From: Marinobacterium mangrovicola
GTDB taxonomy: Bacteria > Pseudomonadota > Gammaproteobacteria > Pseudomonadales > Balneatricaceae
Direction: 5' to 3'
NCBI RefSeq assembly: GCF_004339595.1
Contig: NZ_SMFU01000007.1
Location: forward strand, 578,658-618,657
Length of the DNA stretch: 40,000 nucleotides
Notes under the pieces: model-generated
The model's input: only the letters and a program-made list of their open reading frames with translations
Database searches by the model: none
Told to the model about the DNA's origin: nothing
Made by a program: the position numbers and the translations under genes
Shown: piece after piece, positions 16,430-29,045 of the stretch
Position numbering within the stretch: the stretch's first letter is position 1
Layout of the letters: each line of letters opens with the position of its first letter

Positions 16430-16555
16430 GTGTAACACCTCATCCATGAAATGTTTGAAAACGTTATACCCCCTGGAGCAGGCATCCGTCGAGCATGATG
16501 CCCCTTTAATAAGGAAGCATTCTTCAGAATGAGGGAAAAATCCTTTTTTGATCAA

Positions 16556-16668: not shown

Positions 16669-16905
16669 GTGATTAAAACAGACCATATATCAATTCAATG
16701 CCCTCAGTGTGGACATACTGAATTCGAGCAGCCAGAAAATGTGAAGGATGACGATTTTGTAAAATGCAATAGTTGCCACTTTGAAATCATGTTAGCTGAT
16801 TTGAAAGAGGTAGGGATTGAGCAAGCTAGAGAGGTTGTTATTCCCGAAGCAAAAGCAGAAATTGAGAAAATGCTAAAGAAAGCATTCAAAGGCCGCCTCA
16901 AGTGA
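16669..16905 (+). CDS. Cassette 1, gene a: small zinc-ribbon protein
   Basis: 78 aa with a GTG start after a strong SD. It has CPQCG...CNSCH (four Cys, zinc-ribbon spacing) and then a Lys/Glu-rich helix. Confidence 0.65.
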   Translation: MIKTDHISIQCPQCGHTEFEQPENVKDDDFVKCNSCHFEIMLADLKEVGIEQAREVVIPEAKAEIEKMLKKAFKGRLK

Positions 16906-17375
16906 GTAAGTTTGAGATTCTGAGCCTAATTATTTCTACTTTAGCTGCTGTGATTTCATGTGTTTCGTTGGTGCGTACAAGAAAGCTAGCTAAAGAACAG
17001 CTCGAGCTTGAAAGAGTAACCGCTGAGTTATCTAGACTTCAAATTGAAAGCATCGCTGAAGAAAAGTCTGATAAAACCAAGCCAAAGTTTAATGTAAATC
17101 TCACGAAGTTTGGTAAGTCCTACAATTTTTATATATCAAATACTGGCCAAGGCAGCGCTTACAATGTTGATTTTGAGCTAATTGATTGTAATGACAGTCC
17201 GCTATCAACTCATGAGTTACAGGATATGTTTCCTCATCAAGAGATGAAACCAAACTCAAGAATAAAACTTATGGCCGCAATTCATATGGGTAGTCCCAGG
17301 AAATATCAGGTTAAGTTAACTTGGGAGAATGCAGACGGGGAAAAATATGATGAGACATTTTGGCCTACGCTGTAG
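16902..17375 (+). CDS. Cassette 1, gene b: membrane-anchored coiled-coil protein with a beta-rich C-terminal domain
   Basis: 157 aa. The GTGA start/stop overlap with gene a indicates translational coupling. It has an N-terminal TM (ILSLIISTLAAVISCVSLV), a heptad-like segment (KEQLELERVTAELSRLQIESI), then a C-terminal domain I do not recognise. Confidence 0.65.
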   Translation: MSKFEILSLIISTLAAVISCVSLVRTRKLAKEQLELERVTAELSRLQIESIAEEKSDKTKPKFNVNLTKFGKSYNFYISNTGQGSAYNVDFELIDCNDSPLSTHELQDMFPHQEMKPNSRIKLMAAIHMGSPRKYQVKLTWENADGEKYDETFWPTL

Positions 17376-17378
17376 CAC

Positions 17379-17450
17379 GTGTAACAAGGCGCTGTTGTCG
17401 GACTGTTTTTCCGCTGCGCTCCAAAACAGCCGCAAAGCGTGGCGTTAGCA
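17379..17450 (+). repeat. attC 1
   Basis: GTGTAAC...GTTAGCA. The arms are partly complementary (GACTGTTTTT / AAAACAGCC). Confidence 0.75.
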
Positions 17451-17457
17451 CAAAAGA

Positions 17458-17980
17458 ATGAATCAGATCGAAGCAACTAAGATTGTGGTTGAGAAAGTCA
17501 TGGCTCATAAGCCAGGATTCTCTCTAATGCTTGATTCCACGGAGGAATTTGGAAAGTGTTTTGCTTTCTACTGCCAGAATGACTCTTATGTCGACATCCG
17601 GAGATGTTTCTGATATGAGCGTAGGTCAAGGTCCTATAATTGTGTGTAAAACCACAGGTGAATGTTTTGAAACTGGTTCCACATTTTCAACTCATGAATA
17701 CGTCCATGCGTTTGAGGCATGTGGTGATCCGTATGGGAGGCCCACCGCCAGAGTTCGCATTATGGGCTGGATCGAGGGAGCGAATGCGGTCAAAGCAGTT
17801 CAATGCGTAAAAGCAGCATCTAATCTAAATCTTGCACAGGCAAAATCACATATAGATACTGTATTGAGTGGTGGGAATACAGTTGTTTGTCTAGATTCCA
17901 TAGATGAAGTTGCAGGGGTAATTCAAACTTTAAGTAAGAATGGATTTGAATCAAGACAACTTTGGAGCAACCAGTGCTAA
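17458..17980 (+). pseudogene. Cassette 2: YrhB/Imm35-like protein with an L7/L12-C-like tail, interrupted by a frameshift
   Basis: The ATG at 17458 opens MNQIEATKIVVEKV...FGKCFAFYCQNDSYV and then hits TGA at 17611. The homology continues in the next frame (track ORF 17531-17980) as SGDVSDMSVGQGPIIVCKTTGECFETGS..EYV. The pieces are collinear with E. coli YrhB as I recall it. The frame switch is at about 17588-17597. Confidence 0.6.
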
Positions 17981-18089
17981 CAAAGGGGTGCATGGGAAGC
18001 CATTATGTTGCGCAATTTTTTGCATTTGCTTCGCAAATTATCGCAAAAAATGGCTCCACTCCATGTCTCCCATGACCCAGGCGTTAAAT
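17975..18089 (+). repeat. attC 2
   Basis: TGCTAAC...GTTAAAT. Complementary arms are GGGGTGCATGGGA / TCCCATGACCC. The gene's stop codon lies inside the R'' core. Confidence 0.75.
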
Positions 18090-18108
18090 TTCAAGGAAGC
18101 ATCGAGCA

Positions 18109-18342
18109 TTGAAAAGAAAAGACTCAGATGAGGAGCAAGAAAAAGGGCGGTTAGCCTTTTGGCGCGATCCTACGGATATTGAGTTTCTTGCAAGCGAATG
18201 GAGAAAAATTCCAGAAGATGTCCCCGAACAGGTAAAAGAAACATGGGCGCGCATTGCTTTTCGAGCATCATCAGCTTTGCATAAGGCAGGAATAAAGATA
18301 GAACCCAAGTTCCCCGAAGATCATGAGAAATACAAAATTTAA
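18109..18342 (+). CDS. Cassette 3: hypothetical acidic 77-aa protein
   Basis: The only sizeable + strand ORF in this cassette. It needs a TTG start (there is no in-frame ATG). The stop codon lies in the attC R'' core. Confidence 0.4.
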   Translation: MKRKDSDEEQEKGRLAFWRDPTDIEFLASEWRKIPEDVPEQVKETWARIAFRASSALHKAGIKIEPKFPEDHEKYKI

Positions 18343-18417
18343 CAAAGCCAAGCACGATCGCACCAGCAAGCTGGTGCTGGACCTCGCTACGCTCGGCCCG
18401 TGTTGGCGGCGTTACAT
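18337..18417 (+). repeat. attC 3
   Basis: ATTTAAC...GTTACAT. The ends are nearly identical to attC 6 (AACAAAGCCAAGCAC ... CTGGACCTCGCTACGCTCGGCCYGTGTTGGCGGCGTTA). Confidence 0.8.
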
Positions 18418-18432
18418 GCCTTAGGAGATATT

Positions 18433-18765
18433 GTGCCAAGCCAAAAGGAAGTATGTAAAAAAATCGACGCAATACCGTTTCCCTCCAAAGAGAGTGAAAA
18501 ACTAGGTATAGCTGTCGAAACTATTGGCAAATTGCCAATTAATGGCTTGCGGCTCAATCCCGAGGACGGAACATGTGGCTGGTATATTTGGTGCGGCGAA
18601 GAAATGTCCGAAGACGCAGATTTTTTCAAGCCATTGCATGTCAGCCATATCTCGGAGTACCTACCTGAAGTAGAGCAATATTTATCATTGCCACCAGGTT
18701 ATAGATTTTTAGTAGCTGGCGAGTACGAGGATGTGTGGCATGATCCACAGCTCACCAGCATGTAA
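18433..18765 (+). CDS. Cassette 4: hypothetical protein, possibly Imm33/DUF2185-like
   Basis: GTG start 4 nt after AGGAGA. The motif DGTCGWYIWCGEEMSEDADFFKPLHVSHI...LPPGYRFLVA resembles the GW..W.GEE proteins I associate with Imm33/DUF2185. The family call comes from memory only. Confidence 0.55.
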   Translation: MPSQKEVCKKIDAIPFPSKESEKLGIAVETIGKLPINGLRLNPEDGTCGWYIWCGEEMSEDADFFKPLHVSHISEYLPEVEQYLSLPPGYRFLVAGEYEDVWHDPQLTSM

Positions 18766-18819
18766 CAAGTTTAGGCAATCGGACGCAGCACAGCTGCGCC
18801 GTTGCTAAAGGCGTTAAGT
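18760..18819 (+). repeat. attC 4
   Basis: ATGTAAC...GTTAAGT. Complementary arms are GTTTAGGCAATCGGACGCAGC / GCTGCGCCGTTGCTAAAGGC. Confidence 0.8.
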
Positions 18820-18829
18820 GAATGTTCGG

Positions 18830-19234
18830 ATGTCGCGAAATTTGAAGATTGAGAAAAGAGTTGCGGCCTTCCTTGGTATTGCACTCGGTTTTTTGCTGCC
18901 AGTCACCCCAGAGCTGGGCTTAGTTATCTTGGCGGCCTTTACGGACCCGTTATCCATATTCAATTGGAGCCCATGGTTCTACCCTCTAGGTTTAGTGAGC
19001 GTGGCTGGTATGCTCTCGCTTGCGATCATGAGCCCCAAGTTTAATGAAGCAACAGCATTTTTTATTTGGGCTGGCCAAGCTGTCTTCTGCGGGGGTTGGA
19101 TAGTTGGAAAGGTCTTTGTCCTTGGTCAATCATGGCTCTTTTCTGCGTGGTATTTATTATGTAGCGCAGCTTCAATATATGTAGCTTTCAAGATTCAGTA
19201 CGGCCGCAGAGAAAGTCGTGAGGCAACCACTTAA
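18830..19234 (+). CDS. Cassette 5: hypothetical four-helix membrane protein
   Basis: About 134 aa and strongly hydrophobic (AAFLGIALGFLLPV, LGLVSVAGMLSLAIM, FFIWAGQAVFCGGWIVG, SAWYLLCSAASIYVAF). The start could be ATG at 18830 or GTG at 18818. Confidence 0.6.
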   Translation: MSRNLKIEKRVAAFLGIALGFLLPVTPELGLVILAAFTDPLSIFNWSPWFYPLGLVSVAGMLSLAIMSPKFNEATAFFIWAGQAVFCGGWIVGKVFVLGQSWLFSAWYLLCSAASIYVAFKIQYGRRESREATT

Positions 19235-19313
19235 CAAGTTGTTGTAGTTTGTTCCGGCCTAAGGCCTCCACTGGACGCCCCTCTCGGGGCGCCGCTAAAC
19301 AAAAGCGTTATGA
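19229..19313 (+). repeat. attC 5
   Basis: ACTTAAC...GTTATGA. Internal hairpins are GGCC-TAA-GGCC and GCGCCCC-TCTC-GGGGCGC. The same subfamily as attC 9 and attC 10. Confidence 0.75.
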
Positions 19314-19669
19314 ATCCCTCAGATTCGAGAGAGAAAATGTATCCGGATGATGTGAATGGCGATGTGTTCAGAAGATTGGAGGAAGATAATTTCGATTTCT
19401 CTATCGAGCATCCAGTCGATTTCTATGCTATCTATGCCACCGAAGAAGAAGCTGACCTCGTTGCAAGGCAATACGCAACCGATTGGAAGAACGGACAAAA
19501 ATTTAAAAATATAGAAACAAGGCCGAGTGATGATGGTGGTATGGAGTTAGAGTTAGTCCCAATTATGATGGTTACATTTGACAATGTCGTCGCCTTTGAA
19601 AATAAACTGGCCGAGCGTACATCAAAGGTGAACGGATATTTGGATGGCTGGGGCGTTTTAAATGGCTAA
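19310..19669 (+). CDS. Cassette 6: RraB-family protein (regulator of ribonuclease activity B-like)
   Basis: 119 aa. It matches the RraB pattern: ...NGDVFRRLEEDNFDFSIEHPVDFYAIYATEEEADLVA... and a C-terminal YLDGWG (compare RraB YDGWG). The ATG lies inside the attC 5 R' core. Confidence 0.7.
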   Translation: MNPSDSREKMYPDDVNGDVFRRLEEDNFDFSIEHPVDFYAIYATEEEADLVARQYATDWKNGQKFKNIETRPSDDGGMELELVPIMMVTFDNVVAFENKLAERTSKVNGYLDGWGVLNG

Positions 19670-19671
19670 AT

Positions 19672-19759
19672 TCATAACAAAGCCAAGCACATTCTTGCAA
19701 TGCAAAAAGCGCATTGCACTGGACCTCGCTACGCTCGGCCTGTGTTGGCGGCGTTATGT
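19672..19759 (+). repeat. attC 6
   Basis: TCATAAC...GTTATGT. The ends are nearly identical to attC 3, with a different central loop. Confidence 0.8.
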
Positions 19760-19826
19760 TACCGAGTTACCCACGAAGAGTAGACACCTTCTATAGTTAG
19801 GTTTACGCCTGACGGGGAGGTGTAAG

Positions 19827-20135
19827 ATGGCCAGGAAAAAGTATCAGCACTATACCGAGGAGTTCCGACGCGAAGCGGTAAAGCGCGCGGGTCAACCTGG
19901 GAATACAGCAGCCTCGGTTGCGAAAGAATTGGGGATTCATCCGGGTCAGATCTATAACTGGAAGCGCCAGTTCAACCGCTTGTCGGAGAAGCAATTCAAC
20001 AGCCTGAATGGTGTCGACTACTCCAAGTCTGAAAGCGAAGAAGTTCGCCAGTTAAAGCGTGAGCGGGATGCGCTGAAGAAGGAGCTCGAGTTTCTAAAAA
20101 AAGCTGCTGCGTACTTTGCGAGCCAGCACGAGTAA
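19827..20135 (+). CDS. IS3-family transposase OrfA (HTH)
   Basis: MARKKYQHYTEEFRREAVKRAGQPGNTAASVAKELGIHPGQIYNWKRQF followed by a leucine-zipper-like tail, as is typical of IS3 OrfA. Confidence 0.9.
   Translation: MARKKYQHYTEEFRREAVKRAGQPGNTAASVAKELGIHPGQIYNWKRQFNRLSEKQFNSLNGVDYSKSESEEVRQLKRERDALKKELEFLKKAAAYFASQHE
20096..20103 (+). promoter_or_regulatory. Programmed -1 ribosomal frameshift site (A AAA AAA G)
   Basis: Seven A residues then G, in the orfA frame as cta-aaa-aaa-gct. The -1 frame is open from here into orfB (..KKSCCVLCEPARVKYALIQEYRGQFSIRLMCRVLKVSASGYYRW). Confidence 0.75.
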
Positions 20136-20182
20136 AGTACGCTCTGATACAGGAGTATCGAGGACAGTTTTCGATACGTCTG

Positions 20183-20989
20183 ATGTGTCGAGTGTTAAAG
20201 GTATCGGCATCAGGATATTACCGCTGGTTCAACCGGGATATCAGTTCTCGTGAGCTCAAGCGGCAGATCATGGAAGAGCAGGTCATGGATACCTTCGCCA
20301 CTTACAAAGCCCGCTATGGGGCACCGAGAATCGCCAAGGAGCTCAATGCTCTAGGCATCCCTTGTTCGGTCAATTACGTGGCTGAGATCCTCCAACGTCA
20401 CGGTGCCAGGGCTCGTAACGGCAAGGCCTTCAAGTATTCGCCGAACACCGAAGCGATGACCGGCGTGGCCGACAACCTTCTCAAACGTCATTTCAACGCG
20501 GATGGTCCAAACCAAAAGTGGACCACCGATATCACCTATATCTGGGTCAAGGATCGCTGGTTGTACCTGGCCACGGTGATGGATCTGTATTCGCGCAGCA
20601 TCGTCGGTTGGGCGCTTGATACCAGCATGACCGAACAGTTGATCACTGATGCGCTGCAAATGGCATTTAAACGTCGTGATATCGAGCCTGGTTTAATAAT
20701 CCATTCGGATCGTGGCGTCCAGTATCGTTCGAACCGCTATCAGGCCTTGATGGAGCGTCACGGCTGCCAACCCAGCATGAGTCGAAAAGGGAACTGTTGG
20801 GACAATGCAGTGATGGAGTCGTTTTTCAGTCGGCTGAAAGTGGAGCTGATCTATGCTGAACAATATCGAACAGTAGACGAAGCTAAATCAGGGATATTCG
20901 AGTACATCGAAGTATTTTATAACCGCATACGTAGACACTCAGCTTTGGACTATGTCAGCCCAGCAGAGTATGAGCGCAAATGCGCATAA
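20183..20989 (+). CDS. IS3-family transposase OrfB (DDE integrase domain; expressed as an OrfAB fusion)
   Basis: It has an rve-type DDE domain (WTTDITYI, IIHSDRGVQYRS, NCWDNAVMESFFSRLK) in the -1 frame relative to orfA. Confidence 0.9.
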   Translation: MCRVLKVSASGYYRWFNRDISSRELKRQIMEEQVMDTFATYKARYGAPRIAKELNALGIPCSVNYVAEILQRHGARARNGKAFKYSPNTEAMTGVADNLLKRHFNADGPNQKWTTDITYIWVKDRWLYLATVMDLYSRSIVGWALDTSMTEQLITDALQMAFKRRDIEPGLIIHSDRGVQYRSNRYQALMERHGCQPSMSRKGNCWDNAVMESFFSRLKVELIYAEQYRTVDEAKSGIFEYIEVFYNRIRRHSALDYVSPAEYERKCA

Positions 20990-21038
20990 TCTAGTGTCTA
21001 CTTTTTGTGGGTAGGACCAGGAGAAGTGAGGCTAGTCA

Positions 21039-21791
21039 ATGGATAGTAAATCAATAGATTCCCTTTTTAGAATTGTAAAACAAATAAATGATAGAGAGCG
21101 AGCGAATAGAAAAAACAAATCTAAGACTCCAAATAATAGACAGGTAAACAGACTTTTTATTGAGCTCGTAATTTTCCCCTTTTGCTTGGCAATCACAATT
21201 GCGCTAGCTAGGAAACTCTTTGAACTAGGTGACTGGCTTATTAATCCAGCATTAGCAATGCTTGCGCTCTCTTATATCGGGATTGTCCTACATCCGATCA
21301 TTTCTATAATTATCAACCGTAAAGCTTTTGTTCCGGGGATATTGAACCCGTTTTATTTACTTGTTGATAACGCCAAGTCATGTTCTGAAGTGGATGCAAA
21401 GCTTGTTCGCTATTTAGAGTCAAAACCTATAGAACACCTCAAGTTTTTATTGTTGGAAATCAATTCAGAAAAATCTGCATTTCAAAAGCGAATATCATTA
21501 ACCATAGGCGCAATTGAGAAAATAGGACTTCTTCCTGGATTTCTTGCAATGGCTGTAACATTATCAAAGCTAGGTAGTGGGCAACCTGAATGGGTGTATG
21601 CACTAGCTTATGCAACCCCAGCGCTTCACGTATTTGGTGTAGCTATGCACTATCTGAGATCTAGGCTTGAGAGAATGTCAAGCTTGCTAGAGTATGTAAT
21701 TGAGACTAAAGAAAGCTCCCTAACAAATCAATCAACCACCCGCCTAGCGGCGCCGGACAGCCTACGCGTTGCTTCGGTTGCCGGTTATTGA
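21039..21791 (+). CDS. Cassette 7: hypothetical membrane protein (250 aa)
   Basis: Basic N-terminus and several TM helices (LFIELVIFPFCLAITIALA, ALAMLALSYIGIVLHPIISIII, IGLLPGFLAMAVTL, ALAYATPALHVFGVAM). The last roughly 24 codons are encoded by the attC itself. Confidence 0.6.
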   Translation: MDSKSIDSLFRIVKQINDRERANRKNKSKTPNNRQVNRLFIELVIFPFCLAITIALARKLFELGDWLINPALAMLALSYIGIVLHPIISIIINRKAFVPGILNPFYLLVDNAKSCSEVDAKLVRYLESKPIEHLKFLLLEINSEKSAFQKRISLTIGAIEKIGLLPGFLAMAVTLSKLGSGQPEWVYALAYATPALHVFGVAMHYLRSRLERMSSLLEYVIETKESSLTNQSTTRLAAPDSLRVASVAGY

Positions 21792-21802
21792 AGCGTTAAG
21801 TT
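21719..21802 (+). repeat. attC 7
   Basis: CCCTAAC...GTTAAGT. The arms are partly complementary (AAATCAATCAACC / GGTTATTGAAGC). Confidence 0.65.
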
Positions 21803-21815
21803 AAAGGATGACCTT

Positions 21816-22088
21816 ATGAGCAAGGAAGATAAACCAATTCAGGTTGTAATTCTTGGGACGATATCATCTCTCGCTCTTATCTGTGTAGCTACATATATTG
21901 CAATTGCAGGCTTTAATATAGCCTCAACTGTAATTTTAGTTTCAGCTCTTAGTGGACTAGCTGTTCCAGCTGTCGTTTATGCAGATGGTGCTATTGAGTG
22001 TGTAACCGGCGTATTCGAAATGTTTATAGAAGGTCTGGTTGCAATATTTGAAGGAATTGTAGAGATAGTAGGTTCAATATTTGGATGA
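21816..22088 (+). CDS. Cassette 8: small hydrophobic protein (90 aa)
   Basis: The ATG follows AAGGATG. It has two TM-like helices and a hydrophobic/acidic tail (FEMFIEGLVAIFEGIVEIVGSIFG). Confidence 0.55.
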   Translation: MSKEDKPIQVVILGTISSLALICVATYIAIAGFNIASTVILVSALSGLAVPAVVYADGAIECVTGVFEMFIEGLVAIFEGIVEIVGSIFG

Positions 22089-22113
22089 TTTAATAATTAT
22101 ATGTATGAAACAA

Positions 22114-22198
22114 TTCATAAAAAGTTGCTAAAGTTTACTCCGGGACTTGGTCCTCCGTAGGACCGATGCCGCTTAGGCCCTTGAGCAAAATATTATGC
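22114..22198 (+). repeat. attC 8 (degenerate cores)
   Basis: TTCATAA...ATTATGC. The arms AAGTTGCTAAAG / CTTGAGCAAAAT are complementary. The same subfamily as attC 15 (TTGCTMAAGTTTACTCC). R' starts with A instead of G. Confidence 0.6.
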
Positions 22199-22211
22199 TA
22201 TTAGGTGAACT

Positions 22212-22691
22212 ATGTCAGCGCATTATAATCTATTGTTATCGCTTCCGTTGAATATATCTTCAGCTGTTGAACATTCCTCTGTCCTGGAGTTCGTCCTCAA
22301 TAAAAATAGTTCTCAGCCAGCGAATTTTCCTAATCATCCGTTCTTTGAAAAATTTAACCCAATATATCGTTTTCATAATTCTTATAAGGGGATCGTTTCA
22401 GGCGCATGGAAATCAGAGGCTTGGCTGGAAAAGGCGCCAAACGGTAATGTTTGTAACGCTGGCGTCAATCTTTGCTTACCCGGAAATAAGCTAGAGGGAG
22501 TTTGGCAAGATACCCTTCCTCTTATTCATTGGTTGGCTTCAATGTCATCGGCGCAAGGAGCTGTCGGTATTGTCGTTGCGGAAGATCTTAGCGAGGATGA
22601 ACCAATGGTTTTATTTGTTCGCCGCTCAAAGCTCTTTATTTCTACATCGAAGCATGAAGAACTTTATAATTTTGACGATGCTCTATCTTAA
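22212..22691 (+). CDS. Cassette 9: hypothetical protein (159 aa)
   Basis: The ATG follows AGGTGA. It is the single long + strand ORF filling the cassette. I do not recognise the family. Confidence 0.6.
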   Translation: MSAHYNLLLSLPLNISSAVEHSSVLEFVLNKNSSQPANFPNHPFFEKFNPIYRFHNSYKGIVSGAWKSEAWLEKAPNGNVCNAGVNLCLPGNKLEGVWQDTLPLIHWLASMSSAQGAVGIVVAEDLSEDEPMVLFVRRSKLFISTSKHEELYNFDDALS

Positions 22692-22701
22692 CCATGATAA
22701 G

Positions 22702-22773
22702 GCCTAACAAATACACAAAGTTCGCCCACTTCGTGGACTGGGGCCTCCAGGCCCCTTGCGTGGTGCGCTAGGA
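22702..22773 (+). repeat. attC 9 (degenerate R')
   Basis: GCCTAAC...GCTAGGA, with a central perfect hairpin GGGGCC-TCCA-GGCCCC. The R' core is GCT instead of GTT. Confidence 0.6.
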
Positions 22774-22781
22774 AGTCTCGA

Positions 22782-23207
22782 ATGAAGCCCACATTCCGGC
22801 ATGCGAAAGATAAGAATTTTGTTGAGCAACTGACTCTTCGAAACATGAAGCCGTACTACAAAGAACTCGGAATTCGCTGGGACCATGAGTTATTCGAGGC
22901 GAACTGGAAGGAATTCGAGAACTACGAGATAGCTATCGATAAGTGTGCGATAGGAGCCTTGCGATTGAGTCATGATAGTTGCGCTTATTAACTTCGCGAC
23001 CTTCAAATCGACCCGGATTGGCAAGATAAGGGAGTGGGGTCGCAGGCAATCAATTTTGCTATTGCTGTCGCCCAGAAAGAAGGCTTTCAATTGCTTCGAC
23101 TTCGTGTTTTTTGTGCAAACCCCGCAGTCGCTCTCTATAGGCGCTTAGGGTTCCGGATTTGCAAAACTGAAGTCGGGGTTCACTCTATGGAGCGGGAGCT
23201 GTCTTAA
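22782..23207 (+). pseudogene. Cassette 10: small GNAT-family N-acetyltransferase interrupted by an in-frame TAA (22989-22991)
   Basis: The track ORF ends ...IGALRLSHDSCAY*. The same frame continues without a start codon as LRDLQIDPDWQDKGVGSQAINFAIAVAQKEGFQLLRLRVFCANPAVALYRRLGFRICK. This is the GNAT acetyl-CoA-binding core (Q/RxxGxG/A ... A..LY...GF). Confidence 0.75.
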
Positions 23208-23289
23208 CAAGTGTATCAAATACGTTCCGGCCCAAAGGGCCTCCCACCGGACGGCCCTTAAGGGTCGCCGTTTATCCAATGCATTAGGG
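23202..23289 (+). repeat. attC 10 (degenerate R')
   Basis: TCTTAAC...ATTAGGG, with an internal hairpin GGCCC-AAA-GGGCC. It is closely related to attC 5. R' starts with A instead of G. Confidence 0.6.
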
Positions 23290-23302
23290 GAAGGAAGGTT
23301 CC

Positions 23303-23770
23303 GTGCAGAATGACTACGAAATAGCTCCAGGAAAAATACTCAAGGTGTTTTCAGCGGAAGAGACATCAGAGATTGAAAAGTCTTGGATGAACATATTCTG
23401 CAAAAATAAACAGGGATCTAATACAAAGGCATACAAGTGGCATATTTTCAGTGGTGGTGGGTATCCATCTGTTGATGGAGAAGCCGCAAAAGAAGAATAT
23501 AAAATCCAATCGGCGGCAAAGTTCGTGGTGTTACCGAACGATGGTGAAAACGCCGTTTTGACGGATTGTTTGCCCCGAGCCTGTTGTTTGAGTGATTACT
23601 ATGTATTTCCTCTCAATATGGCGTGGGTAATGGCATTTACACACGAAGATGGGTGGCTTGGTCCATATTTTGCGAAACATCAAAACTATAATGCCTTAAA
23701 TAAAGATAATTTTATGCAAATAAAAAAAGATCAACAAAAGTCTGAGGCAAAGAAGAAAGGGTGGCTTTAA
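23303..23770 (+). CDS. Cassette 11: hypothetical protein (155 aa), possibly DUF4275-like
   Basis: GTG start after GGAAGGAAGG. The motifs KWHIFSGGGYPS and YYVFPLNMAWVMAFTHEDGWLGPYF recall DUF4275-type proteins. The family call is from memory and is weak. Confidence 0.55.
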   Translation: MQNDYEIAPGKILKVFSAEETSEIEKSWMNIFCKNKQGSNTKAYKWHIFSGGGYPSVDGEAAKEEYKIQSAAKFVVLPNDGENAVLTDCLPRACCLSDYYVFPLNMAWVMAFTHEDGWLGPYFAKHQNYNALNKDNFMQIKKDQQKSEAKKKGWL

Positions 23771-23773
23771 TAT

Positions 23774-23904
23774 TGTTTAATTCAGAGCCAAGCAAGGTGC
23801 TGCAGGAGAATCGTAGTACGCTACGAAAATTTTATGGTATCGCTACGCTCTTTTTGCCATAGAACTTACTCCACTACATTGCTCTACTGACCACGACGTT
23901 AAAA
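23774..23904 (+). repeat. attC 11 (long, partly decayed)
   Basis: TGTTTAA(T)...GTTAAAA. It shares AGCCAAGCA and TCGCTACGCTC blocks with attC 3 and attC 6, but arm complementarity is weak. Confidence 0.45.
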
Positions 23905-23921
23905 GTCTTAGGTACTGAGAA

Positions 23922-24338
23922 ATGATCGGAATTGAATTTGAAGAACCAAAGCAAGAAGTTTGTGAATGTTGTGGAAATACCACAACACGGTTGACTAGGT
24001 TTGTGTATCGAGATGGGGATGCATTTGCCGTCTACTATGTGCTGTTTACAAACGGCCATGAAGATAAGTTTGCATACTCACTGATAGGTCTGGGTGATTG
24101 GGGGGAAGGGGCTGAGCCAGAAATGCGCACAGCTTTCGCAGTTAACATCTGGGATGACAATGATAATTGGGCAGTGACCGTCACGGATAAAGCAGAATCG
24201 CCCTGGAGTCACGTTGAGTTCATGGGCAAGATCCTAGATCGTGAAGCAGCCTTAGATCACCCTTGGATCAAATATGTATATCAGATCACCGATCACATAG
24301 TTGCGGAGGACAAGCCAGTAATGGAGTTCTTCGCGTGA
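23922..24338 (+). CDS. Cassette 12: hypothetical protein (138 aa) with an N-terminal CECCG motif
   Basis: The single long + strand ORF of the cassette. I do not recognise the family. Confidence 0.6.
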   Translation: MIGIEFEEPKQEVCECCGNTTTRLTRFVYRDGDAFAVYYVLFTNGHEDKFAYSLIGLGDWGEGAEPEMRTAFAVNIWDDNDNWAVTVTDKAESPWSHVEFMGKILDREAALDHPWIKYVYQITDHIVAEDKPVMEFFA

Positions 24339-24344
24339 TCCAAC

Positions 24345-24408
24345 TTGTAACAAGTCAAAGCAGCAAGGGCCTGCGGTTGGGACAGACTAAAGCACCGAGG
24401 CATTACAC
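24345..24408 (+). repeat. attC 12-like junction (degenerate)
   Basis: TTGTAAC...ATTACAC. It has a TAAC-AAG start like the other attCs, but the arms are poorly complementary and R' starts with A. Confidence 0.35.
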
Positions 24409-24423
24409 ATTGCAGGAGCAGTT

Positions 24424-24810
24424 GTGATAGTTATCTATGGAATCAAAGAACACCTTAATCCGATCAAGGCTCAGCTCTCTGAGGTCATTCACGGATGTAT
24501 GCAGTCTGTACTTGGTATGCCTGAAGACAAGCGGGCTCACCGTTTTATCCCTATGGAATCTGAGGATTTTTATTACCCCGTTGGCAGGACGCCCGCCTAC
24601 ACTGTCATCGAGATCAATATGATGCAGGGTAGAGCTCCCGAGACCCAAAAAGCTCTGATCAAGGAGCTATTCAACAAGATTGAGTCCGAGGTTGGCATCT
24701 CACCCGTGGATGTTGAAGTCACGATCAAGGAACAACCACCTCACTGTTGGGGCTTTCGAGGCATTACCGGAGATGAGGCGCGTGACCTCAAGTATTCGGT
24801 CAATGTGTAA
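24424..24810 (+). CDS. Cassette 13: tautomerase-superfamily protein (128-aa long form)
   Basis: GTG start 5 nt after AGGAG. Sequence MIVIYGIKEHLNPIKAQLSEVIHGCMQSVLGMPEDKRAHRFIPMESEDFYYP...YTVIEINMMQGRAPETQKALIKELF...ISPVDVEVTIKEQPPHCWGFRG matches the tandem beta-alpha-beta tautomerase family pattern. Confidence 0.7.
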   Translation: MIVIYGIKEHLNPIKAQLSEVIHGCMQSVLGMPEDKRAHRFIPMESEDFYYPVGRTPAYTVIEINMMQGRAPETQKALIKELFNKIESEVGISPVDVEVTIKEQPPHCWGFRGITGDEARDLKYSVNV

Positions 24811-24879
24811 CAATGTGGTCAACGGGCTGGAAACTGTGCTGAGCTCTGTGGGTGGCACCCATTACTGCTGGCGTTATAC
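24805..24879 (+). repeat. attC 13
   Basis: GTGTAAC (containing the stop codon)...GTTATAC. Arm pairing is less obvious than in the other sites. Confidence 0.5.
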
Positions 24880-24902
24880 CGTTAATGGAAAGGAAGCTTT
24901 AG

Positions 24903-25520
24903 ATGATTTCTATAGAGTTTTTACTCACCTCGCTAGTGGTGGTTCTAATTCCGGGAACAGGGGTTATATATACCGTCGCAACAGGGATCTTCGTAGGTAA
25001 ACGTGCGAGCATATTTGCTGCATTCGGATGCACCCTCGGTATAGTCCCTGCACTTTTAGCCAGTGCTTTTGGTCTTGCCGCTATCTTTCATGCCAGTGCG
25101 CTCGCATTTCAGGTGGTAAAATATACTGGTGCTTTATACTTGATTTATCTTGCATGGCAAATGTGGCGGTTTTCTTCTCCACTCTGTTTGAAAGATAATA
25201 AAGCAGGAGGGAGATACACTGACATTGTTGTCAAAGGATGTTTGATCAATATCCTAAACCCTAAACTTTCTATATTCTTTTTGGCTTTCCTGCCACAGTT
25301 TATATCTAGCAAAACCGATAGCGCTCTAGTTGGTATGATGGTCCTTGGGCTTGTTTTTATGGTTATGACCTTTGCTGTGTTTATTGTGTACGGTGTTCTT
25401 TCAGGAATTTTTAGCCATTTTATTGTTAAGTCAAAAATAGCCAGCAGTGTCATGCATAGAATTTTCGCTACAAGTTTTGCTGCGCTCGGACTTAAGTTGG
25501 CTTTTAGTGATCGGGTATAA
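24903..25520 (+). CDS. Cassette 14: LysE/RhtB-family amino-acid exporter
   Basis: 205 aa with six TM helices. It has the N-terminal LIPGTGVIYTV motif and the LNPKLSIFFLAFLPQF motif typical of LysE/RhtB translocators. Confidence 0.85.
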   Translation: MISIEFLLTSLVVVLIPGTGVIYTVATGIFVGKRASIFAAFGCTLGIVPALLASAFGLAAIFHASALAFQVVKYTGALYLIYLAWQMWRFSSPLCLKDNKAGGRYTDIVVKGCLINILNPKLSIFFLAFLPQFISSKTDSALVGMMVLGLVFMVMTFAVFIVYGVLSGIFSHFIVKSKIASSVMHRIFATSFAALGLKLAFSDRV

Positions 25521-25598
25521 CAGGATCAGGCGTAGCGACAGCTTTTTCGTTGCGGCCACGCCTCCACTACAACGCTACGCCTGTTGGCAGCGTTATAA
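25515..25598 (+). repeat. attC 14
   Basis: GTATAAC...GTTATAA. The arms are strongly complementary (CAGGCGTAGCG / CGCTACGCCTG). Confidence 0.8.
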
Positions 25599-25609
25599 GG
25601 CTTAGGTGT

Positions 25610-25876
25610 ATGGAAACTAAAAAGGCAAATATGATACTAGGGGTTGTAGTCTCTGTTCCGATAGCAGTATTTATATTGATTTATATCGTCAATCTAAGTG
25701 ATTCTCGATATACATGGGATGACATGGATCTAAACGGTGATGGTATGGTTACTTTTACTGAAGCAGAGTATGTAGGATCATCTGGTGTTAGAGAAATCGT
25801 TGTAGATGGAAAGAAGTGCTTCGAATATTTCGCATACAAAGATGGTTTGCCAATTAAAACAGTATGCGAAGAATGA
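25610..25876 (+). CDS. Cassette 15: small membrane-anchored EF-hand protein
   Basis: 88 aa with an N-terminal TM (ILGVVVSVPIAVFILIYIV) and a canonical 12-residue EF-hand loop (DLNGDGMVTFTE). Confidence 0.65.
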   Translation: METKKANMILGVVVSVPIAVFILIYIVNLSDSRYTWDDMDLNGDGMVTFTEAEYVGSSGVREIVVDGKKCFEYFAYKDGLPIKTVCEE

Positions 25877-25880
25877 TCCT

Positions 25881-25971
25881 TATAATAAATTGCTCAAGTT
25901 TACTCCAGGCCTTTGGCCCTCCTTGAGACCTACGCAGCTTCGCTGCTCAGGCCCCTTAGCAAAGCGTTATA
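25881..25971 (+). repeat. attC 15
   Basis: TATAATA...GTTATAT. Complementary arms are AAATTGCTCAAG / CTTAGCAAAGC. The same subfamily as attC 8. Confidence 0.65.
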
Positions 25972-25975
25972 TACT

Positions 25976-26449
25976 ATGAGATATTTACTGATACTTCTCG
26001 CGTTGATTTCATCCCAAGCTAATGCAGGTGTTGATCTAGTACGGGTCGATAAGTCCGAGAGGAAAATGTATCTGTTGTCTGGCGGGGAAATAGTAAAGGA
26101 GTACCATGTTGCACTTGGCGCTAATCCTAAGGGGCCCAAGCAACAAGAGGGTGATGAGCGGACGCCGGAGGGTGACTACACCTTAGATTACAAGAAGGAA
26201 GATTCATCATTCTATAGAGCAATGCATATAAGCTACCCAAATCAAGAAGATATGGCGAATGCTGAGGAATTAGATGTTCCTCCAGGTGGGTTTATCATGG
26301 TCCATGGTCAGCGTAACTGGCTAGGATGGCTTTCTCCAGTTTCGCAGCGCTTCAATTGGACAAATGGGTGTATTGCACTGACGAACGATGAAATGGATGA
26401 GTTCATGGATCTGGTTAATGTCGGTACAAAAATTGAAATTAAGTGGTAA
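25976..26449 (+). CDS. Cassette 16, gene a: exported L,D-transpeptidase (YkuD domain, YafK-like)
   Basis: Signal peptide MRYLLILLALISSQANA. YkuD catalytic region MVHG...WTNGCIALTNDEMDEF (His ... Cys). The RTPEGDY motif is also present. Confidence 0.85.
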   Translation: MRYLLILLALISSQANAGVDLVRVDKSERKMYLLSGGEIVKEYHVALGANPKGPKQQEGDERTPEGDYTLDYKKEDSSFYRAMHISYPNQEDMANAEELDVPPGGFIMVHGQRNWLGWLSPVSQRFNWTNGCIALTNDEMDEFMDLVNVGTKIEIKW

Positions 26450-26505
26450 TCCATATAAAAATCGATGAAAATTATTCAGCTACTCTGACAGGGACGTCAA
26501 AAGCT

Positions 26506-26901
26506 ATGCAAGAAAAGTTTGTTTACGTATTCTCGGGGGAGTTTGAAGATATTGACGCAGCCTGCCTCTACTCTCAGCCTCAATGGGAGCCAGAGCCAGA
26601 TGAATCAGTTTCTGATGAAGAGTACGCAGCTTGGGAAGATCGGAATCCATCCCATCAACTACGAAAGAATATCGACTCATATTTGGATGAAGATTTCATT
26701 GAAACTGTCGATTTAGATTTTCAATACCTTTCCAGCATAGGAGTTGCGGCCTCCGATATAGCTCATATCAAAGAGAATATTGTTGGGGCGAACGTACTTG
26801 TGTTGGTTTATGAGCAGGCTTTAGGTGGCTTTTCTTTAAAAGAAAAACCCGTTTCCAATTCGTCGTTAACTTATTGTGGCCAGTTCAACTTCAAACTTTA
26901 A
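26506..26901 (+). CDS. Cassette 16, gene b: acidic cytoplasmic protein, Imm22-like
   Basis: No attC separates it from gene a. VYVFSGEFEDID...SYLDEDFIETVD...ANVLVLVYE resembles the Imm22 immunity-family pattern as I recall it. The start is uncertain (ATG at 26506, or GTG at 26443 overlapping the upstream stop). Confidence 0.5.
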   Translation: MQEKFVYVFSGEFEDIDAACLYSQPQWEPEPDESVSDEEYAAWEDRNPSHQLRKNIDSYLDEDFIETVDLDFQYLSSIGVAASDIAHIKENIVGANVLVLVYEQALGGFSLKEKPVSNSSLTYCGQFNFKL

Positions 26902-26986
26902 CGCATAATAATCAATTGTAGTCACCCGCAAGCAGGCTGGGACCTCTACTGCTATGTAGCTCCAACCCCTTAATTGAGCGTTAATT
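26896..26986 (+). repeat. attC 16 (last recognisable attC)
   Basis: CTTTAAC...GTTAATT. Complementary arms are GCATAATAATCAATTG / CTTAATTGAGC. Confidence 0.7.
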
Positions 26987-27509
26987 TCAAACGAGTATCG
27001 ATCAATATATGAGCGATTTGGGCGATCTTAGTTTTAGAAACTCGGATCAGAGTCCTATTTCCTCTACTCCATTACGATGGATCCTTGGACTTAGCTGCTG
27101 AACTAATGGGTTCTAAAGCTGCGCGGGCGTATCAACCTGATGGGGTCGCTAAGAAGATCGCCACTGAATCTGACTGGCTTACTAAGCCAGTGCAACTCCG
27201 CCGTAAAACTGAGCCAGTCGCGGCTCGCTGCGGCCAGCGAGCTCATTCCCATCACTCTGTCATCTGTTGCCCCCTGGCGATCTATAATCTGGGAGCGTGA
27301 TGGAAATCTTGCTCCCGAGAACAGGCGATCTATACGGGCGCCGTTACACGGCTACCTTGCTAGCCTCCGCTGAGCTCGATTGAGCTATAGAACCCTCAAC
27401 GCAAGGTTATAAGGACAGGATTATCGAAACTCAGCTGATGCCAAACTGCGGTGAATTGCATTCGGGCTAGCGGATAACCACAAGGAAAGTGTCTGAGTAG
27501 GGGCCTGGG

Positions 27510-29045
27510 GTGAATAGCAAAGCAAACCCAATATTTGACAAGGTCTGCGTGATTTTCGTCAGCGTGCTTGTGGGCCTGGCAACCTATTACACCAGCTACA
27601 CCCTGTTAAAAGGGGACTTCCAGTTGCTGCTTCAACACCAGGCTAGCGCGAGTCTGAATCAGATAGAAGTGGTCGCCGACGATGTATTGTCGACACTCGA
27701 TACGCTCAATGCGCGCAAAGCCGACAGCAACCAGGATTGCGATGCCGATACCCTGCTTGAGATGCGACAGGCGATGTTTGTGTCTGCCAATATCAAGGGC
27801 GTCAGTTTTGTAAAAGATGGCTATTTGATCTGCAGCGCCGCTTTAGGACGGCTGGAGCAAGCCGTACAGATTGAAGAGCCGGATTTTACTACCGAAAGTG
27901 GCGCTGCTGTCTGGATCGATGTGCCGATCCGGCTGACTGATCAAGAGCTTCAGGCGATGGTTATCCAGTCCGGTAGTTTCAGCGGGGTTATCCATCGTGA
28001 TTTTCTGGAGCACCTGGTTGGTCTTAATACAGCCTGGCGCCTTGATGTAGCGGAGGGGTTCACCAGTCGTCTGGAAGACGGCCTCGTTGCCGCAGGGCCT
28101 GCGCGCACACCGAGTAAAGCATTCAAAGTACACGACTGCATAGAGACCCTGCCGTTCTGTATCACAATCTCCGCGACTAACCTGTTTTTCCACCAGCAGT
28201 ATTACCAGGCCCTGGTTGGCTGGGTCGCCGTTTCTTTTTTATTGGCACTGTTCAGTGCGTTGGGCGTTTCCAGCTTTATCCGTCGTTACCGTTCCATAGA
28301 GGCGCGGGTAATACGCGGGCTTTCGGCTGGTGCCTTTCGTTGCCTTTATCAACCTATCGTTGAGCTTGCAAGCGGCAAGATTATCGGCTGTGAAGCTCTC
28401 GCGCGTTTTGGAGACGCGAGGGGAGATATTGCCCCCGACCTGTTCATTCCGGTGATTCATTCCAGAAAAAAAACCTGGCCTTTTACGCAGTTGATCATCA
28501 ACCAGATGCGGGATGACCTGGAGTCAATCTCTGCGCTGCCGAAACCGTTTAAGATCAACATCAACTTCTTTGCCCAGGATATCGAGAATGCCCACGTACT
28601 GGAGCTGCTATCCAGCGGTGAGCTGCAACGGGAGGGCATTCAGTATGTGCTTGAGGTGACTGAGAATGAGCGCCTTTCCACGCTGGAGAGCTCAGAGGTA
28701 CTGGTAACCATGGCTGATCATGGTTACCAGATCGCTGTCGATGACTTCGGTACAGGGTATTCCAACCTGAGTCAGATCAGGGATTTTCAATGTAATACCC
28801 TGAAGATTGATCGCAGCTTTATCAGCGCAATGGGTGGTGATTCGGTGCGTTCTACGTTAATCCCGCATATTGTCGATATCGCCGCGAAAATCGGTGCCGA
28901 AGTGGTAGCAGAGGGGATCGAAAACAGCAGGCAGCACCAGGCGCTGGTCGATGTGGGCGTGCATTATGGTCAGGGCTACCTGTTCGGGAAGCCAATGAGT
29001 TTTGAGGAGCTGGTATCGCTTATCGAGGCGCAGAACGAAAGTTGA
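27510..29045 (+). CDS. CSS-motif-domain / EAL-domain cyclic-di-GMP phosphodiesterase (PdeC-like architecture)
   Basis: TM1, a periplasmic-type domain with two Cys (NQDCD ... GYLICSAALG), TM2, then an EAL domain. The EAL domain has YQPIV, GCEALARF, EVTENE, AVDDFGTGYS, KIDRSF, VAEGIEN and GQGYLF. The start is GTG. Confidence 0.85.
   Translation: MNSKANPIFDKVCVIFVSVLVGLATYYTSYTLLKGDFQLLLQHQASASLNQIEVVADDVLSTLDTLNARKADSNQDCDADTLLEMRQAMFVSANIKGVSFVKDGYLICSAALGRLEQAVQIEEPDFTTESGAAVWIDVPIRLTDQELQAMVIQSGSFSGVIHRDFLEHLVGLNTAWRLDVAEGFTSRLEDGLVAAGPARTPSKAFKVHDCIETLPFCITISATNLFFHQQYYQALVGWVAVSFLLALFSALGVSSFIRRYRSIEARVIRGLSAGAFRCLYQPIVELASGKIIGCEALARFGDARGDIAPDLFIPVIHSRKKTWPFTQLIINQMRDDLESISALPKPFKININFFAQDIENAHVLELLSSGELQREGIQYVLEVTENERLSTLESSEVLVTMADHGYQIAVDDFGTGYSNLSQIRDFQCNTLKIDRSFISAMGGDSVRSTLIPHIVDIAAKIGAEVVAEGIENSRQHQALVDVGVHYGQGYLFGKPMSFEELVSLIEAQNES

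Follow-up and report, generated by a model that had tools for sequence, protein, structure and literature searches.

Orphan immunity-type cassettes within the heterogeneous cargo of a sedentary chromosomal integron from Marinobacterium mangrovicola

We analysed a 40,000-nt stretch of DNA from Marinobacterium mangrovicola (the window) and found that it contains a sedentary chromosomal integron. Three polymorphic-toxin immunity superfamilies, represented by an Imm33-like gene, a divergent Imm22 gene and a frameshifted Imm35 fusion, occur without toxins in this one array. We consider it probable, at roughly 0.6, that the integron carries a heterogeneous cargo which includes orphan immunity-type cassettes, and that the array is not specialised for immunity. 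An earlier note had described the array as a bank of orphan immunity genes; the observation behind this is mostly right, but the reading as a bank is overstated.

Results

The integrase gene intI (15461-16432, minus strand) encodes a tyrosine recombinase, identified by the Pfam domains Phage_integrase (3.6e-38) and Phage_int_SAM_4 (2.5e-25). Its mechanical ORF extends to a TTG at 16555. Using a covariance model trained on the window's own attC sites, with attC8 outside the training set, we found 15 attC sites; all are on the plus strand within 17379-26987, and the rest of the 40 kb has none. A sixteenth site (~23770-23905) was seen by eye only and is missed by the model. Together they delimit 16 cassettes on the same strand, and the IntI domains and attC sites bear out the integron platform proposed earlier. 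We found 273 IntI relatives in genomes, and attC arrays lie on the expected side and strand at 44 of the 80 fetched loci. The same model detected 134 attC sites across the fetched loci: about 122 in IntI loci, all but one with the strand and side expected relative to intI, and the remaining 12 within two homologue loci.

A putative attI crossover (GTTACAC, 16647-16653, plus strand), read from the sequence, would mark the start of the first cassette. The anatomy shows that IntI has captured 16 promoterless cassettes at attI through recombination with their attC sites. A promoter scan of the region gave fewer sites than shuffled sequence, so that none could be assigned. A low-GC block spans 16-27 kb of the window. 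The locus is conserved with M. lutimaris, where the array measures ~1.3 kb compared with ~10.7 kb here, and the outer limit is given by the conserved chromosomal flank (27185-29045, plus strand), which is non-coding at first and then carries a CSS-EAL gene (27510-29045; EAL and CSS-motif domains). From 27185 on, this flank shares 93% nucleotide identity with M. lutimaris.

All cassettes are on the plus strand. Cassette 1 (16669-17451; attC1 17379-17451, E 1.4e-4) has two ORFs, encoding a Zn-ribbon protein of the ECs_2282 type (16669-16905; NCBIfam NF047912, 2.2e-10) and a 157-aa membrane-anchored protein (16902-17375) with a homologue in the Nitrincola array L045 (9e-32). The 77-aa ORF of cassette 3 (18109-18418; attC3 18337-18418, E 1.3e-7) has no Pfam or NCBIfam match. 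Cassette 5 (18818-19314; attC5 19229-19314) encodes a 138-aa membrane protein, and cassette 6 (19310-19760; attC6 19672-19760, E 1.8e-7) an acidic protein of the RraB family (19310-19669; PF06877, 3.8e-18; pI 4.3). An IS3-family insertion sequence with 20-nt inverted ends (19768-21013, plus strand; orfA 19827-20135, orfB 20183-20989; HTH_Tnp_1 and rve domains) sits at the start of cassette 7, and copies with 82% identity are present in the arrays L014 and L023. Membrane proteins of 250 and 90 aa are encoded by cassettes 7 and 8 (21039-22199; attC7 21718-21802; attC8 22115-22199, E 5.8e-4). A 159-aa protein of unknown function (cassette 9, 22212-22774; attC9 22702-22774, R' GCTAGGA) is followed by a GNAT acetyltransferase pseudogene in several frames (cassette 10, 22782-23290; attC10 23202-23290, R' ATTAGGG). 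Cassette 12 (23922-24409; attC12 24345-24409, R' ATTACAC) encodes a 138-aa acidic protein of unknown function (pI 4.4). Cassettes 13-15 (24424-25973; attCs 24805-24880, 25515-25599 and 25880-25973) encode a Tautomerase_2 protein (24424-24810), a LysE exporter (24903-25520) and a small membrane/EF-hand-like protein (25612-25876). The twelve cassettes that had not been flagged are heterogeneous, comprising tautomerase, LysE, YkuD (see below), RraB, the GNAT pseudogene, membrane proteins and unknowns.

Two intact cassettes encode proteins which, judged from their sequences, are small, acidic, signal-peptide-less members of immunity superfamilies. The first is cassette 4 (18433-18820; attC4 18760-18820, E 1.2e-7), whose gene (18433-18765) had been compared to Imm33/DUF2185. 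With 139.7 bits (cut-off 27; E 3.6e-41) the product falls in the Imm33-like family PF24719, which in Pfam is sister to Imm33 and distinct from Imm33 proper, while classical Imm33/DUF2185 is absent among the matches listed at E<=1. The GTG start at 18433 is preceded by AGGAG, with the attC3 crossover just before it. The 110-aa protein (pI 4.6) is mostly beta in an AlphaFold2 model (pLDDT 91) and has invariant Trp residues, in agreement with the published description of Imm33 (PMC3482391). We found 690 homologues; in Aliikangiella the gene lies among small same-strand ORFs with weak attC sites.

The second intact gene (26506-26901) is the Imm22-like gene of cassette 16 (25978-26987; last attC 26903-26987), the last of the array, which lies ~10 kb away from attI with the insertion sequence upstream of it. 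A direct comparison with Imm22 stays under the Pfam cut-off (15.6 against 27 bits, E 0.03), but the proposed Imm22 resemblance is upheld by profile methods. The profile of its 35-member family, searched against 1.8 billion proteins, retrieves proteins that pass the Imm22 cut-off (E 4e-13 to 1e-9), and hhalign matches the family to those proteins at 99.7% (E 2e-25). Moreover, the motif LDxDF[IV]ET is common to this family and to bona fide Imm22 proteins. The protein is acidic (pI 4.1). It has been shown that the Imm22 protein RehhI blocks the T6SS DNase Rehh via an acidic interface (2026 preprint, 10.64898/2026.09.22.753552). Both proteins are small, acidic and cytoplasmic, share the LDxDF[IV]E segment and belong to the same superfamily (hhalign 99.7%). 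However, the protein of the window represents a divergent subfamily with an acidic insertion of ~15 residues (QWEPEPDESVSDEEY), scores under the Pfam cut-off and has no adjacent toxin.

The same cassette carries a YkuD L,D-transpeptidase gene (25978-26449, plus strand) whose product has a signal peptide. Since an R' remnant of an attC site (ATTATTC at 26471) lies in the 56-nt gap between the two genes, cassette 16 looks like two cassettes fused through attC loss. Lying only 56 nt apart in one cassette, YkuD and the Imm22-like protein might be taken for a self-contained pair of a Tlde1-like cell-wall effector and its immunity protein, and T6SS effectors of the L,D-transpeptidase-like type exist (10.1101/2020.02.18.954545). 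This is very improbable and largely refuted. Only YkuD carries a Sec-type signal peptide, which would place it in another compartment than the Imm22-like protein; the R' remnant separates them, the Imm22-like gene is elsewhere a separate cassette without YkuD, and the partners of Imm22 are nucleases (PMC3482391; 10.64898/2026.09.22.753552).

The third immunity-type gene, in cassette 2 (17458-18090; attC2 17975-18090, E 1.4e-7), had been called YrhB/Imm35-like. The family assignment holds through intact homologues, but the gene itself is broken. Its span (17458-17980) of 523 nt is indivisible by 3 and splits into two ORFs, 17458-17613 and 17531-17980, whose frames differ, with one surplus base within GTCGACATCCGG (17590-17601) causing a +1 frameshift that is found in the NCBI and Logan assemblies alike. 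Neither ORF nor the hand-merged 174-aa sequence matches Imm35 at E<=1. Intact 173-aa homologues (<=74% identity) match Imm35 (PF15567; 26-44.5 bits, cut-off 27.5), and also a Ribosomal_L12 C-terminal-like domain. By homology, the gene is a pseudogene for a fusion of Imm35 with a domain like the C-terminal one of ribosomal L7/L12.

Cassette 11 (23303-23905; degenerate attC seen by eye, R' GTTAAAA near 23898) encodes, as proposed, a DUF4275 protein (23303-23770; PF14101, 35.3 bits against 27), but no documented link ties this family to immunity, as the note had suggested it might; nor is such a link demonstrated for the cassettes outside the three immunity-type ones.

In agreement with the earlier claim, a Pfam search of all 23 large flanking ORFs and every cassette ORF shows the window to be free of toxin, Rhs, CdiA, PAAR and secretion genes. 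Close homologues were examined in 13 look-ups, including the loci L091 and L092; one was the window's own genome, and none of the other 12 contexts holds a recognisable toxin domain beside the homologue. Several of these contexts are cassettes themselves, and the homologues are orphans, often bounded by attC. In Thiomicrorhabdus indica and Agarivorans an attC follows directly 3' of the Imm22-like gene, within a run of small same-strand ORFs that holds further attC sites. A distant Imm22-like relative has an LRR protein on one side and a SUKH protein on the other. The neighbour test, proposed in the earlier note as a refutation, weakens the immunity assignment without settling it: the parent Pfam immunity families were defined through toxin adjacency (PMC3482391), and the distant relative has its SUKH neighbour. 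We found no solved structure resembling the model of either the Imm33-like or the Imm22-like protein.

Discussion

Immunity-type genes account for three of the 16 cassettes (3/19 ORFs), one of them a pseudogene. Selection might nevertheless have shaped the integron into an acquired locus for interbacterial defence, analogous to rAID-1 or polyimmunity loci, in which case most cassettes, the unknowns included, would be immunity genes. Three such superfamilies in a 16-cassette array are in line with this, as are further unannotated cytoplasmic proteins that are small and acidic (RraB, pI 4.3; the 138-aa ORF, pI 4.4). Related arrays, with 225 cassette ORFs, contain none of the four flagged families, and with the window judged by deep homology 3/19 ORFs stand against 1/115 in related integrons (p=0.009), a comparison with unequal criteria. 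Under a common criterion, with a set of about 112 cassette ORFs (1/115 in the test), the proportions are 1/19 and 1/115 (p=0.26), and enrichment over related arrays is not significant. At least seven cassettes are clearly otherwise (tautomerase, LysE, YkuD, GNAT and three membrane proteins), and in the closest species just ~1.3 kb of array occupies this locus. Moreover, the pseudogenes (one immunity-type, one GNAT) and four mutated R' boxes suggest relaxed selection. We therefore regard a dedicated bank as unlikely; the array is a mixed gene collection.

Toxin-less polyimmunity loci adjoin tyrosine recombinases (Zhang et al. 2012, PMC3482391, section 39), and these loci and the Bacteroidales rAID-1 clusters (Ross et al. 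2019, 10.1101/471110) resemble the window in their toxin-less immunity-family genes in one orientation, adjoining tyrosine recombinase, repeated intergenic sequences and skewed GC. However, most or all of their genes are immunity homologues, whereas here at most 3-4 of 19 ORFs are, so that, taken together, the array is no counterpart of such a defence cluster. Their recombinase is XerD-like; the window instead has a genuine IntI and canonical attC sites. Structurally, we see no difference from marine gammaproteobacterial sedentary integrons (Vibrio, Shewanella, Pseudoalteromonas and Marinobacterium types), which share an intI divergent from a same-strand, attC-bounded array, mostly single-gene and unannotated cassettes, a genus-conserved chromosomal locus with strain- or species-specific content, and IS insertions and pseudogenes. 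The only notable point is the three immunity-type cassettes among 16.

The decay visible in the array, namely the Imm35-type and GNAT pseudogenes, the mutated R' boxes, degenerate or deleted attCs and the IS insertion, argues that much of it is passive cargo at present. The immunity-type cassettes themselves may be neutral cargo, drawn from the environmental cassette pool and silent or decaying, or serve a function other than toxin neutralisation here; as inhibitors or chaperones of endogenous proteins they could, for example, act through the L7/L12-CTD fusion on translation GTPases. This is possible but doubtful. Besides the decay, which includes the frameshifted Imm35 fusion, the L7/L12 CTD-like domain of that fusion and the lack of toxin neighbours in any examined context speak for it. 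Cognate immunity proteins typically diverge fast, in contrast to the Imm33-like proteins, whose conservation is unusually high (55-91% identity in many genera). On the other hand, the Imm33-like and Imm22-like genes are intact and have plausible ribosome-binding sites, the acidic Imm22 motif is kept, the Imm22-like relative co-clusters with a SUKH protein, and the families to which these proteins are homologous were defined by toxin adjacency (PMC3482391).

With mixed cargo that includes orphan immunity genes as our preferred reading, such genes may move as single-gene cassettes through the marine gammaproteobacterial cassette pool. A Tdi1 T6SS-immunity cassette in a related Methylophaga integron is in line with this. 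If expressed, each protein would bind the matching competitor-injected toxin and occlude its active site. By analogy to RehhI-Rehh, the Imm22-like target would be a nuclease, bound via an acidic DNA-mimicking surface, and Imm33-type proteins would be directed against HNH-type nucleases. Polymorphic-toxin immunity families are not discussed in the cassette-function surveys that we searched. Anti-phage defence cassettes described for chromosomal integrons (Darracq et al. preprint, 10.1101/2024.07.02.601686) share the concept of an integron that stores single-gene or streamlined cassettes for use in conflicts; there the conflict is with phages, whereas in the window it would be with interbacterial toxins.

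Results

Integron platform

The window holds a genuine integron with 16 cassettes and 19 ORFs, since an IntI gene is accompanied by an array of attC sites that all lie on one strand and are confined to 17379-26987. The tyrosine recombinase gene intI (15461-16432, minus strand; Phage_integrase and Phage_int_SAM_4 domains) is divergent from the adjoining array, and IntI relatives with 52-92% identity adjoin attC arrays in the loci that we fetched for comparison. The GC content is 0.55-0.62 in the flanks and 0.40-0.50 in the central block at about 16-27 kb, on whose left border intI is located. Reading of the sequence revealed GTTACAC at 16647 as a plausible attI crossover, 3' of which all sizeable ORFs are on the plus strand and lie between imperfect palindromes running from ...TAAC to GTTRRRY.

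The attC sites were searched with a covariance model made from 14 aligned sites with imposed R''/R' and L''/L' pairing; filters were off for the window search. In the 40 kb the model found 15 sites with E values from 7e-11 to 6e-4. All are on the plus strand and within 17379-26987, and nothing else reached E<=1. One of them, at 22115-22199, was recovered although it was absent from the training set. A 16th, degenerate site 3' of the DUF4275 gene was recognised by eye only. We also applied the model to 78 of the 80 loci that IntI had retrieved and to four loci with homologues of the cassette genes discussed below. These loci contained 134 attC sites, about 122 of them in the IntI loci (all but one on the expected strand and side) and the remaining 12 in two homologue loci, from Thiomicrorhabdus indica (L001) and Agarivorans (L002). 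A look-up of the window's own DUF4275 protein showed that the same array is present in an independent assembly. A simple promoter and terminator scan of the array stayed at or below the shuffle expectation.

The flanks are collinear in M. lutimaris, where window positions 6142-15443 and 27185-33079 are matched at 84-93% nucleotide identity and intI at 93.6%. The distance from intI to the far flank is only about 1.3 kb in M. lutimaris (L008), compared with about 10.7 kb in the window. Hence, the integron is sedentary and chromosomal, its content is specific to the species, and the core chromosome sets in again at 27185. The roughly 200 nt 3' of the last attC (from 26988) are not common to M. 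lutimaris; a conserved non-coding stretch of about 325 nt leads from 27185 up to the EAL gene (to 27509). In Marinobacterium sp. YM272 (L010) the CSS-EAL gene is found between the saccharopine-dehydrogenase gene and intI instead of on the far side of the array; the locus has thus undergone rearrangement in the genus.

Immunity-type cassettes

The earlier note had read four cassette genes as possible immunity genes of polymorphic toxin systems. The protein of cassette 4 (18433-18765) matches PF24719 (Imm33-like) over its full length, with 139.7 bits against a gathering threshold of 27 (E 3.6e-41). It had been likened to Imm33/DUF2185; we can place it in the sister family PF24719 only, because PF09951 (Imm33 = DUF2185) is not listed among its Pfam matches at E<=1. 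We found 690 homologues of about 110 aa with 55-91% identity in Shewanella, Microbulbifer, Pseudoalteromonas, Marinomonas and others. The AF2 model of the protein (pLDDT 91.4) is mostly beta, with seven strands and short helices, and an alignment of 35 homologues shows W50 and W53 to be invariant. Imm33 has been described as a mostly-beta fold with conserved Trp (PMC3482391), and the predicted fold and the invariant tryptophans fit this description. A PDB sequence search with the protein returned nothing. In Aliikangiella the gene is one of a series of small ORFs on the same strand, with weak attC matches, and in Shewanella it is flanked by core genes; neither in these two contexts nor in one metagenome contig did we find a toxin or a known immunity neighbour.

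The acidic protein encoded at 26506-26901 in cassette 16 had been called Imm22-like. Direct Pfam comparison gave 15.6 bits on Imm22 (PF14112/DUF4284), below the gathering threshold of 27 (E 0.029). An Imm22 match at E<=0.1 was obtained for only 4 of the 35 members of its family, and all 62 close homologues are without a precomputed Pfam domain. Deeper profile comparison, however, supported the assignment. A 35-member profile searched against 1.8 billion representatives retrieved the proteins P0162, P0178 and P0180 at E 4e-13 to 1e-9, and these pass the Imm22 threshold with 37, 31 and 30.5 bits on PF14112, respectively. An hhalign comparison of the window's subfamily with the Imm22 proteins gave a probability of 99.7% (E 2e-25). 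Both groups have the motif LDxDF[IV]ETI.G..R..YL in common, and the window's subfamily carries a 15-residue acidic insertion. By the profile search, the hhalign match and the common motif, the protein is a divergent member of the Imm22 superfamily. A PDB sequence search with the profile returned nothing.

In T. indica (87% identity) and Agarivorans (64%) the Imm22-like gene belongs to a series of small ORFs, all on one strand, that are interspersed with model-detected attCs; in both organisms one attC lies directly 3' of the gene. No toxin neighbour was found in four contexts of the divergent subfamily, nor in one context of a bona fide Imm22 gene. A distant relative (P0061) is encoded outside any integron, between an LRR protein and a SUKH/SMI1_KNR4 protein (L096:1153-4295). 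These surroundings resemble the heterogeneous polyimmunity loci that Zhang et al. defined (PMC3482391, section 39).

In the window the Imm22-like gene is preceded by a gene for a YkuD L,D-transpeptidase with a signal peptide. The two share one cassette (25978-26901), since the attC between them is reduced to a remnant of about 21 nt plus ATTATTC at 26471. A toxin-immunity pair of YkuD and the Imm22-like protein was considered and rejected, given their different compartments, their separate cassettes elsewhere and the attC remnant between them. The Imm22-like gene has no YkuD neighbour in T. indica, and in Agarivorans a 93-aa ORF separates it from the nearest upstream attC.

Cassette 2 (17458-17980) does not contain one ORF but two overlapping reading frames in 523 nt. 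The window copy has no Imm35 (PF15567) match of its own at E<=1 by direct Pfam search, neither as pieces nor as merged sequence. The proposed YrhB/Imm35 relationship was recovered only via the homologues. The merged translation has 22 of them, most being uninterrupted 173-aa proteins, and the intact homologues score 26.2-44.5 bits on PF15567 (cut-off 27.5). In an alignment with these proteins, one additional residue has to be accommodated in the window sequence where the two frames meet, near codon 45, which places a +1 insertion within GTCGACATCCGG (17590-17601). The gene is most likely a pseudogene, because the same shortened ORF of 121 aa occurs in both the NCBI and the Logan assemblies. 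The C-terminal module (17760-17980 in the window; homologues P0063-P0083) resembles the C-terminal domain of ribosomal L7/L12 (profile versus PDB, E 3.9e-4). This domain is the part of L7/L12 that contacts translation GTPases. The fusion may hint at a toxin or a target connected with EF-Tu or EF-G. In two metagenomic contexts the homologue is embedded among small ORFs unrelated to one another, and in a third context it lies close to a LodA operon. The intergenic regions around one homologue (L006:4395-4500 and 5025-5190) contain a common repeat, TTAAGTAAAG...ACGTGGYG..CTGATTTC, which went unrecognised by the attC model and may represent a different recombination-site or repeat family.

The fourth gene (23303-23770, cassette 11) had been proposed as a DUF4275-like addition to the set. 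Membership in DUF4275 (PF14101) was confirmed with 35.3 bits against a threshold of 27, but a link to immunity was not. No paper mentioning the family turned up in the literature searched, and the only two relatives found lie beside a dehydrogenase, a transposase and small membrane proteins. Plasmids contained no DUF4275 match, a PDB search yielded only chance antibody matches, and overall we found nothing that ties DUF4275 to toxins or immunity.

Toxins and content of the array

Pfam searches of every cassette ORF and of 23 large flanking ORFs revealed no Rhs, PAAR, VgrG, Hcp, CdiA, LXG or secretion-system component, which bears out the claim that the window has no cognate toxin or secretion gene. 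The 23 flanking ORFs encode transporters, regulators, polyamine-synthesis enzymes and a FAN1-like nuclease with normal HTH and SAP domains. The prediction that homologues would adjoin toxin genes elsewhere was not borne out, as none of the 12 contexts examined (10 contigs and two metagenome loci) contained a recognisable toxin domain.

The earlier note had further regarded the array as a bank of orphan immunity genes. Only three, at most four, of the 19 ORFs are of immunity type; the rest encode enzymes, transporters, membrane proteins and unknowns. The background consisted of 225 ORFs taken from 44 related integrons, whose attC-defined arrays together cover about 150 kb; no homologues of the four families were found among these ORFs. 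Pfam was run on about 112 of these ORFs from 24 arrays, scanned concatenated, with the middle third of the set left out. This yielded one immunity-named match, T6SS_Tdi1_C, and also one ankyrin protein. The T6SS_Tdi1_C cassette (E about 2e-20; L037:8307-8777, minus strand) belongs to an integron of a Methylophaga MAG that is related to the window's. When both sets are judged alike, by direct Pfam matches to immunity-named families at E<=1e-4, the ratio is 1/19 in the window and 1/115 in the background (Fisher p=0.26). A comparison of 3/19 with 1/115 gives p=0.009, where the window is judged by deep profile work and the background is not. Enrichment of immunity families is thus suggestive at best, and the view of the array as an immunity bank was not upheld.

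Discussion

The intact Imm33-like and Imm22-like proteins are both small and acidic, with a pI of 4.6 and 4.1, respectively, and lack a signal peptide. They would act as orphan immunity proteins that bind toxins delivered by competitors. The integron would serve to capture and store immunity genes and to express them according to position. For Imm22 a direct precedent is available, as conserved acidic residues of the Imm22 protein RehhI occlude the active site, positively charged, of the T6SS DNase Rehh (10.64898/2026.09.22.753552). Published partners of Imm33 are HNH-fold nucleases (PMC3482391). The toxins looked for beside homologues were of the HNH/DHNNK type for Imm33 and of the types REase-4, Ntox49, Ntox14 and Tox-REHH for Imm22.

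Toxin-less immunity arrays beside tyrosine recombinases are already known from the polyimmunity loci of 2012 (PMC3482391) and from rAID-1 in 2019, the latter described as 'reminiscent of integrons' (10.1101/471110). The suggested parallel to such clusters applies insofar as toxin-less genes of immunity families are found here on an integron platform. It does not extend to the locus as a whole, as rAID-1 and heterogeneous polyimmunity loci consist mostly of immunity-family genes, whereas in the window these amount to 3-4 of 19 ORFs. The window is the weaker case, a classical integron with a few immunity-type genes among unrelated cargo. It shows only that immunity-type genes occur as cassettes. 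In the literature searched we found no paper on polymorphic-toxin immunity families as integron cassettes, which makes the observation a lead of modest use for a systematic census.

A broader reading is that classical integrons of marine Gammaproteobacteria are a general vehicle by which orphan interbacterial-immunity genes are traded as single-gene attC cassettes, as a counterpart of the acquired interbacterial defence of Bacteroidales, with SOS-triggered shuffling bringing the relevant gene next to the promoter. We regard this as rather unlikely, at roughly one chance in four. Candidates for such a trade are the Imm33-like family, whose 110-aa proteins are highly conserved, the Imm22-like subfamily with its acidic proteins, the Imm35-L12CTD fusions and the Methylophaga Tdi1 cassette. 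If the immunity-type cassettes protect against injected toxins, defence against bacterial competitors would be a third conflict-related role of integrons, beside antibiotic resistance and anti-phage defence. Such protection would also link the integron field to the concept of orphan immunity and acquired interbacterial defence, so far documented mainly in gut Bacteroidales.

Other cassettes and decay of the array

Cassette 1 (16669-17375) contains two overlapping ORFs, for an ECs_2282-type Zn-ribbon protein and a 157-aa membrane-anchored protein, and could be a small two-gene module. The Zn-ribbon family gave the only match when ten cassette proteins were compared with NCBIfam. The 157-aa protein recurs in an integron of Nitrincola tapanii (L045:4160-4633, 9e-32). 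Further cassettes encode unknowns of 77, 138 and 159 aa, four membrane proteins (one with a weak, sub-threshold EF-hand match), RraB, a frameshifted GNAT acetyltransferase, a tautomerase, LysE and the signal-peptide YkuD protein. The RraB-family acidic protein (RNase E inhibitor-like) is a cassette both here (19310-19669) and in an M. maritimum integron (L025:6292-6606).

The GNAT cassette (22782-23207) is split into at least three reading-frame pieces and is therefore a pseudogene, so that the array contains two pseudogenes, this one and the Imm35 fusion, plus one IS insertion. Moreover, the R' box reads ATTRRRY instead of GTTRRRY in three attCs (at about 22190, 23283 and 24402) and in the remnant at 26471, and that of attC9, the site closing cassette 9, is GCTAGGA (about 22765). 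The altered crossover G may have immobilised these cassettes. Together with the fusion of the YkuD and Imm22-like cassettes, the pseudogenes, the IS insertion and the altered R' boxes are signs of decay. The inserted element is of the IS3 family (19768-21013), has inverted ends of 20 nt and lies immediately 3' of attC6. Copies with 82% identity were found inside the arrays of two other Marinobacterium integrons (L014:6928-8199 and L023:844-2140), which suggests that this element prefers cassette arrays.
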